Both the position numbers and the translations under genes were made by a program. Shown here one piece after another: positions 37,601 through 38,354 of a stretch of DNA of 41,359 bases (its first letter is position 1; each line of letters opens with the position of its first letter). The notes under the pieces were generated by a model. It saw only the letters and a list, made by a program, of their open reading frames with translations. It did not search any database and had not been told where the DNA came from. The DNA is from Macrostomum lignano (taxonomy: Eukaryota), in assembly GCA_002269645.1 (NCBI GenBank), contig NIVC01002953.1:1-41359 (forward strand), read 5' to 3'.

Positions 37601-38354
37601 AAGGTTGAAACAGAGGATCGGGCAAAGCCGCGAACCAAAGGTTCGATGTCTATAAAGATATGGAAAAAATTAAGGATACACTGGATACCTCCGACTATCC
37701 GGATAACCATCCTTTAAAATCAGATCAAAATAAAAAAGTTGTACTTAAAATGAAAGATGAATTAAATAGCAAAATCATAACCGAGTTTATAGCAATAAGA
37801 TCAAAATGCTATGCATTTAAAGTTTTAGGACAGGAGGGAGAGGTAAAAAAAATAAAAGGGGTATCAAGAGCAGCAGTAAAAAAGATAACATTTGATGATT
37901 ATAAAAACGTACTTTTAGATTACCTTAATACAATTGAAAATTATCATGCTCCACAATATCGATTAAATTCAGATAAGCATCAGATGTTTGTCATCGAGAC
38001 AGATAAAAAACATTAAGTCCATTTGATGATAAAAGATATTTAGATGATAAAATTAAAACATATCCATATGGTTTAAAAGAAGAGATAAAAAATATGATAA
38101 AAGATAAAAAACAAAAAGAAGATATAATAAGTAAATATAATGAATACAAAGCGGCAATAAATAATTATTATTACGATTGTGATTGTGAATCCGAATGTGA
38201 TTGTGAATATAATACATTTCTAGAATATGAAAAAGATATAGATAATTATTATTCAACATTTCCAAAAGAACTTAAAAAATTAAATAAGGAAAAAGTCTTG
38301 AATAACTGGAAGAGATTAACAGAAAAATTACTTATCGGGTCTGTAAAAAACTAA
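34609..38354 (+). CDS. polB: Protein-primed family B DNA polymerase (pPolB) of Polinton type, six apparent frameshifts
   Basis: NKDNKCLLWC and THYIYIKD (OTU-like domain); CRNC...HQRFC zinc finger; ExoI IYADFE; endonuclease VII-like CFMC...REHCHLTGNYRGAACRSCN; ExoII HNGSGYD; ExoIII YLKADVLLL; SAPGLTW; IRGG; motif A YLDANNLYG; motif B KLMNNAFYGK; motif C YADTDS; KCY; KGV; DDKR. Shifts at about 36408, 36797, 36905, 37552, 37629 and 38010. Confidence 0.95.

Follow-up and report, generated by a model that had tools for sequence, protein, structure and literature searches.

The Polinton and its polymerase gene

The window (the whole 41,359-nt stretch of contig NIVC01002953.1 of Macrostomum lignano that was analysed) contains the left part of an endogenous Polinton (32399..41359), which is cut by the contig end, is recognised by its polymerase and by a full copy elsewhere in the assembly, and hosts the units described below. 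Its protein-primed family B polymerase gene (34367..38354, plus strand) includes an endonuclease VII-like domain and is split over several frames in the window because of single-base shortfalls. The polymerase has 1549 homologues at E ≤ 1e-20, the few named ones being mostly from marine invertebrates; its match to PF03175 is weak (E 5.7e-4, under the cut-off), and the YADTDS motif is present. Among the features of Polintons, the protein-primed polymerase was found here, the integrase (rve, E 6e-8) and the A32-like ATPase (Pox_A32, E 6.5e-7) in other copies of the family, and the terminal inverted repeats with a 6-bp target duplication in the full copy on C1530, of about 17.7 kb. ORFs fitting the capsid and protease in size and position are also present, with no Pfam match among them. 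The motif-C pattern gives 113 copies of this polymerase family in the 764-Mb assembly, and the Polinton copies are mosaic.

The endonuclease VII-like domain of the polymerase (35836..36024, plus strand; PF02945, E 7.9e-7, residues 438-500 of the ORF at 34525-36435) also has a profile match to T4 endonuclease VII (1e7d, E 0.0017), a junction resolvase. It appears to keep an acidic residue, His, Asn and Glu at positions that we take to be catalytic, and is a candidate structure-selective nuclease.

The left end of the element is a fold-back (32399-32667), with a perfect 27-nt inverted repeat, 215 nt apart, and a nested imperfect inverted repeat inside, and a second perfect inverted repeat of 30 nt is found at 32753-32850. 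Single GC-rich triloop hairpins are located at 32686-32700 and 40949-40963, the first being kept in 10 of the 11 sequences scanned near the left end and adjoined by units in copy L165. Long satellite arrays of 22-nt and 20-nt repeats occupy 26000-32400, directly left of the element, and several other Polinton copies likewise lie within satellites. Additionally, a second PolB type (YGDTDS) was found in a Polinton with the same flanking genes (L158:4828-6199 and L151:1-1288), as well as a piece of a D5-like primase-helicase (L163:8693-9346) near fragments of family 2. The homologues P0019, P0033, P0044 and P0054 have the extra domains PF14528 and PF14890, which look like inteins.

Structure, alleles and sites of the double-hairpin unit

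The polymerase gene has two double-hairpin units in the window, which belong to the same family and have the same architecture, the kinship that the original prediction had proposed. The unit at site 1 (35615..35644, plus strand) has 30 nt and is in frame; elsewhere this site is empty, shifted by 3 nt or tandem (37 places, with five exact empties, two registers 3 nt apart and one tandem). The unit at site 2 (37617..37645, plus strand), the one first flagged, consists of a leading AT, hairpin 1 (37619..37630) and an abutting hairpin 2 of 15 nt (37631..37645) with a perfect 6-bp stem and an AAA loop. It is followed by the target AT of the host gene (37646..37647), which the leading AT repeats, as established by 21 empty alleles (L067, L133, L319 and 18 more) and by the L317/L319 pair. 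The letters at 37616-37647 are exactly those given earlier; the AAA loop described with them is present in hairpin 2 of site 2, and across the family the loops are not always AAA.

Hairpin 1 of site 2 is one base below the 13 nt of the family form (5-bp stem, 3-nt loop), so that the unit has 29 nt here instead of 30 and the frame is broken. This length is probably an assembly error, since the assembly is rich in indels (15-37 events per 3.4 kb between copies, in an alignment of 18 plus-strand copies that excluded minus-strand ones) and the shortfall is absent from the short-read contigs of three of the four runs, which come from separate studies; contigs from three studies carry the flagged unit. 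This agrees with the restored C that had been suggested, which makes the unit 30 nt and in frame, the length of 13 of its 30 closest copies (13 others are one base short and four are two short). The contig of the fourth run, X6 (organism B), crosses the flagged site with 34 gaps and appears to represent an empty allele there, and loose contig ends of this run carry a different unit at site 1.

Without the unit, the segment after motif C is free of gaps, as had been stated: the spacing from DTDS to D[TA]SDY is 25-26 in 94 of 120 homologues (among the others, one has 28, 13 lack the second motif and 12 lack DTDS). An empty copy has a spacing of 25 and a filled one of 35, the empty state being the ancestral spacing. 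Uninterrupted polymerase ORFs exist with ten extra residues after motif C, and some have twenty. An insert of similar length in relatives, which had been named as a refuting condition, is not seen in these 94. One homologue (P0011) has 11 unrelated residues at the same position, known here from the protein alone; this insert indicates that the loop after motif C is permissive. The signature peptides of the unit are absent from all 120 homologues. The hairpins also exceed the frequency in codon-shuffled controls: an uninterrupted ORF copy has two units, and two were never reached, either in 5000 codon-order shuffles or in 5000 synonymous re-samplings of the same ORF, while one unit was reached in 1 and 73 of these, respectively, under a GC floor that excludes AT-rich chance folds.

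A scan of the assembly for the paired hairpins, using a degenerate family pattern, gave at least 312 matches and none for a control pattern; with one mismatch allowed, the pattern has no match in the window itself, because both units there deviate from it. Of the 100 matches listed among the 312, most are complementary at the free stem positions, as judged by eye. The loci examined have 66 different 30-mers, all with one fold: AT, a 13-nt hairpin with a 5-bp stem (for example CGGAC/GTCCG, CATGC/GCATG, CGTGC/GCACG or CGAAC/GTTCG) and an abutting 15-nt hairpin whose 6-bp stem has CG at both ends. Of 61 cores, 58 fold as two abutting DNA hairpins. For 54 of the 66 30-mers (near-duplicates removed), 8 of 11 pairs change on both sides, with 122 compensated cells against 45.8 in shuffles (0 of 500 as high), a contrast inflated by the relatedness of the units and by their selection through pairing, which makes the percentage paired partly circular. 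The modules are reassorted, with 25 hairpin-1 types combined with 37 hairpin-2 types, and nine types (three of hairpin 1 and six of hairpin 2) are seen in both orientations.

The presence/absence polymorphism to be checked at the flagged site was found, with 21 empty copies and, in most others, ten additional in-frame residues. The 46 distinct places first sampled comprise two empty, 42 single and two tandem alleles, and 32 further copies, picked for missing the exact second hairpin, have both anchors in 31 cases, 19 of them empty; the two samples are biased in opposite directions and neither yields an allele frequency. The empty alleles were obtained by targeted retrieval, the exact-flank pattern having no match because they differ in the upstream codon. 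The flanks of L317 (filled, with a unit differing in sequence from that of the window) and L319 (empty) are identical, and the difference is exactly one 30-nt unit. The first and last hairpins of a tandem at this site are those of an observed single hybrid unit, and the tandem would collapse to this hybrid. Also, the window contains a 9-nt remnant of a third unit at convergent gene ends (site S04, 38334..38342, plus strand), which elsewhere has 30-nt and empty alleles, as well as an empty AT target (S13, 35225..35226, plus strand; filled in L047 and L061) and an empty GT target (S10, 38433..38434, plus strand; filled in L074 and L077).

Empty alleles occur wherever a site is well sampled, remnants and decayed arrays are frequent, and 5 of the 16 sites having an exact-length empty allele offer filled/empty pairs with identical 8-nt flanks. 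A tree of the flanks with the flagged site masked (73 rows: 55 filled, 18 empty) has 10 state changes, at least seven of them forced by well-supported branches; because the Polinton copies are mosaic, it is evidence that units were gained, lost or transferred repeatedly, and not of ten separate insertions. Sequence differences concentrate within 4 nt of the junctions (17/128 against 175/3500, P 3e-4, a count that takes in at least one apparent excision footprint, at S08), as in conversion tracts.

Units were located at some 30 or more distinct sites, spread over several Polinton families of the assembly, where 223 arrays fall into 47 clusters. For the analysis of the target, 29 simple sites were retained (two of them possibly homologous) after hot-spot arrays and duplicates were dropped. 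The right flank is AT at 23 of the 29, against a background of 0.124 (P 3e-16), and the left-end dinucleotide is AT at 21 and another at 8; most sites have AT on either side, so that the unit proper measures 28 nt and AT is the repeated dinucleotide. Where the target is GT or AA, the left end is usually still AT (S01B, S04, S10), indicating that the AT can come with the unit. A 3-nt GAT direct repeat, as first described, is rejected: the boundaries are AT and 28 nt ahead of the target dinucleotide, the final G of the supposed repeat is part of the hairpin-2 stem, insertion 1 has no downstream GAT, and the preceding base is G at 9 of the 29 sites. The GAT repeat in the window is a coincidence of the preceding G.

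Units are mostly within ORFs, many of them mid-gene, in both orientations relative to the genes and in all three codon phases, with one in an intron loop and hot spots at gene starts and ends; the gene that receives a unit gains ten amino acids. At one such hot spot, the end of the ATPase gene and the start of a penton-like gene (L122, L142, L143), units form nested arrays, up to three at a time and differing in orientation, with 11 to 108 nt between fixed anchors in 33 places. Of 76 loci checked for context (60 from motif scans and 16 picked as isolated among the 312 matches), 74 belong to several families of Polintons or to DNA linked with them and two to one further mobile element that shares a gene with Polintons; none of the 76 motif-picked loci is in host-like DNA, an apparent confinement to Polinton-type elements. 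A non-Polinton element with a long inverted duplication (C1500:206000-217100, loci L292 and L293, with a relative on C578) contains an ORF of 700 residues that faintly resembles Rep_trans, together with one gene common to Polintons and an in-frame unit.

Outside this assembly, one metagenome locus (L263:302-333) has a perfect unit of the same architecture with different stems, in AT-rich DNA and in frame at an ORF start, beside a gene like the Polinton PLA2-like gene (E 1e-6) without the intron at that point. It is the only one taken as a real unit among the 120 metagenome matches listed, 11 GC-rich ones with 10 of 11 pairs being taken as chance. Six patterns gave 0, 0, 0, 1, 5 and 0 matches in IMG/VR, all six in GC-rich phage-like DNA without the full fold and thus with no true unit; one polymerase relative from IMG/VR has no unit, and bacterial and archaeal genomes had no match for the pattern tried.

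The structure-defined micro-element that had been suspected is therefore borne out by filled and empty alleles, by 66 30-mers with one fold, by compensatory stems, by tandems and by its many sites, and we consider it highly probable that a fold-defined mobile unit exists in Polintons. Taken alone, the 46-nt flagged stretch folds modestly above shuffles (z -1.95, 8 of 200), so that the case rests on the copies elsewhere.

Routes by which the unit may spread

Here it is proposed that the unit is copied into new AT sites at the DNA level during Polinton replication, a mechanism to which, taken in full, we give an even chance. Protein-primed, strand-displacement replication would expose single strands on which the C-closed triloop hairpins could fold; strand displacement is a known property of these polymerases according to the available part of PMC11071308. 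A nascent or broken end may then switch template to a donor unit at a shared AT and return, which would leave one unit there together with another AT. Where a filled strand pairs with an empty one, the abutting hairpins and both flanks would together make up a four-way junction. The endonuclease VII-like domain of the polymerase could cleave this junction, turning empty alleles into filled ones or the reverse; such cutting could also drive homing, excision and the swapping of hairpin modules. The 30-nt length presumably persists because it leaves the reading frames of a gene-dense genome intact.

Copying at the DNA level is favored by the number of matches found for about 113 polymerase copies (at least 312, and none for the control), and the differences near the junctions would speak for short conversion tracts. 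Against the full scheme, many of the 120 homologues are listed with an endonuclease VII domain, and all 120 lack the signature peptides, so that the domain is insufficient and its role hypothetical; recombination between Polinton copies alone could yield many of the tree changes, and a candidate nicking enzyme of another kind is present in the genome. Insertion by the integrase was rejected, its duplication being 6 bp. A bolder version, which we regard as speculative and rather doubtful, sees the unit as a 30-nt mimic of a Holliday junction and, among the parasites of eukaryotic virus-like elements, as the smallest: it would recruit the endonuclease VII domain of the polymerase, home, reshuffle its modules and seed AT sites without a gene of its own. 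If this were true, the same architecture in an unrelated Polinton-like fragment would mean a widespread class set by fold, not by sequence.

A nicking enzyme acting in trans (of the HUH/Rep type, as for REP/REPIN) might instead peel the unit off as a small circle and paste it beside an NGAT-like target, which we judge unlikely. Both unit ends are ATCG/CGAT, one junction often keeps the AT of the element and the other the target, and on one strand most loops read R-N-A (22 of 25 types and 26 of 37); also, the non-Polinton element on C1500 combines its in-frame unit with the Rep_trans look-alike. However, no Y1/HUH family was found among the Polinton ORFs scanned (some small ORFs lay outside the scan), and the look-alike scores 0.78, below the lead threshold, with no Pfam match and on two contigs only.

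Homing by a free-standing HNH/endonuclease VII-like gene or another Polinton endonuclease, with breaks repaired from filled copies, units hitch-hiking and new sites arising as rare accidents, is less probable still. A variable free-standing endonuclease gene is indeed present (phrog_1035, E 1e-13), adjoining a group I intron, and a 190-nt patch containing a unit has about 90% similarity between families whose similarity elsewhere is about 50%. In yeast, intron endonucleases have been proposed as helpers of GC clusters in the part of PMC4478555 available. A site-specific enzyme, however, leaves about 30 unrelated sites with only AT in common unexplained, and the position of the free-standing gene, whose product has no PDB match, suggests service to the intron.

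This endonuclease gene (L087:845-1489, minus strand, and 16 other ORF pieces) differs between copies far more, and in a more mosaic way, than the neighboring genes do, and a second family has at the same position a different, restriction-enzyme-like ORF (L157:3122-3487; PF09553, E 6e-4). The group I intron (RF00028, 64-89 bits) is located in the PLA2-like gene in three of the seven sources scanned (L102:5688-5990, plus strand; L152:2898-3281 and L162:1939-2305, minus strand). In the main family the HNH/endonuclease VII-like gene is just upstream of the 5' exon of the intron, an arrangement that suggests collaborative homing, and a hairpin unit lies within the P5 extension of the intron. Group I introns are already known from PLVs of protists, as reported in the accessible part of PMC12220804.

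That the unit is a functional signal under selection (a transcript end, a packaging signal or a recombination mark), with mobility secondary, would fit its strict fold and length and the hot spots at gene starts and ends; yet the empty alleles at every well-sampled site, the many mid-gene units in both orientations, and the common remnants and decayed arrays make it very unlikely. The hairpin-generating replication suggested as a second idea in the original prediction, in which fold-back synthesis by the polymerase creates new hairpins at every site, is largely refuted and has a slim probability: the same 30-mer can be found at sites unrelated to each other, and the stems neither copy nor share anything with their flanks. 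Compensatory stems and loop flips are expected from template switching within a hairpin, a process established for quasi-palindromes, but fresh synthesis accounts for the variation of units, not for their origin. Movement through RNA is equally hard to credit, given units with no poly(A) tail, in both orientations within genes and absent from host-like DNA among the 76 loci, although the host genome has reverse transcriptase ORFs and an RNA intermediate was suggested for the double-hairpin elements (DHEs) of Allomyces because they are without flanking duplications, as far as the text available of PMC2800124 goes. Finally, an assembly artefact or chance palindrome, which the indel-rich assembly and the weak fold of a single site might suggest, is refuted by the hundreds of copies, the short-read contigs of three studies and the 0 of 5000 shuffles reaching the count, the 29-nt length alone being a likely artefact.

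Relation to known elements and significance

The unit resembles several known hairpin elements. As in the Rickettsia palindromic elements, insertion is in frame within protein genes; those bacterial elements also add a tolerated peptide, but at about 100-150 bp they are some five times longer than the 30-nt unit, for which the pattern tried has no prokaryotic match, and they are conserved by sequence, not by a two-module fold. The REP/REPIN elements with RAYT and the peel-and-paste IS200/IS605 elements also have tiny paired hairpins recognised as single strands and a short target motif; those elements are mostly extragenic and bacterial, and no cognate HUH (Y1) transposase was found among the ORFs scanned here, the faint Rep look-alike being in another element. 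The T-shaped ends of adeno-associated virus combine two short hairpins that abut each other, have three-base loops of A or T and flip their orientation, but they are fixed genome ends and not dispersed inserts. The unit is not a MITE: it has only ATCG/CGAT ends, and the sole DDE enzyme seen is the integrase, with its 6-bp duplication.

The closest parallels are mitochondrial. The DHEs of Allomyces, other chytrids and Schizosaccharomyces are, like the unit, short, GC-rich, gene-less and built of two adjacent stem-loops, optional between relatives or homologous sites and without a known mobilising enzyme, according to the available parts of PMC10085805, PMC4618339, PMC7218506 and PMC2800124. Both the two adjacent GC-rich stem-loops and the optional presence are found here. 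In the same sources the DHEs are mitochondrial and mostly in intergenic regions or rRNA genes, whereas the Polinton unit belongs to a nuclear virus-like element, is mostly in protein genes, in frame, and has a fixed 30 nt; DHEs are also reported, in what is available of PMC2800124, without a flanking duplication, whereas the unit has the AT repeat at most sites. The unit works like DHEs and falls outside them by its location and flanking duplication. The GC clusters of yeast mitochondria, such as GC42, have a 2-nt target duplication (AG, against AT for the unit) and share with it tandem arrays, merger and shuffling of units, co-conversion of flanks and proposed endonuclease helpers (PMC4478555, in part); they differ in their mitochondrial location, length and fold, and the likeness drawn here is by description, not by sequence. 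The unit thus works like these clusters and is separated from them by location. No report of such units in Polintons, adintoviruses or virophages was found across a full-text collection with few subscription papers; the available parts of PMC10748475, PMC12220804 and bioRxiv 10.64898/2026.07.28.741278 describe only endonuclease domains, introns and terminal palindromes.

For the polymerase, the inserts mean that 10 or 20 foreign residues are tolerated ten positions past a catalytic motif, and they are a warning that Polinton alignments can be distorted by such units. How gene-less hairpin elements (DHEs, GC clusters, Rickettsia palindromes) move has been an open question for decades. Here, a single genome offers more than 100 recent copies of one host element, 17-18 kb long and with few enzymes that can all be listed, and its filled, empty, tandem, flipped and hybrid alleles can be compared directly. 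This unusually good natural data set brings the question within reach of experiments on oligonucleotides and one or two purified domains. The finding also points to a possible function for the endonuclease domain of Polinton polymerases, which has lacked an explanation.
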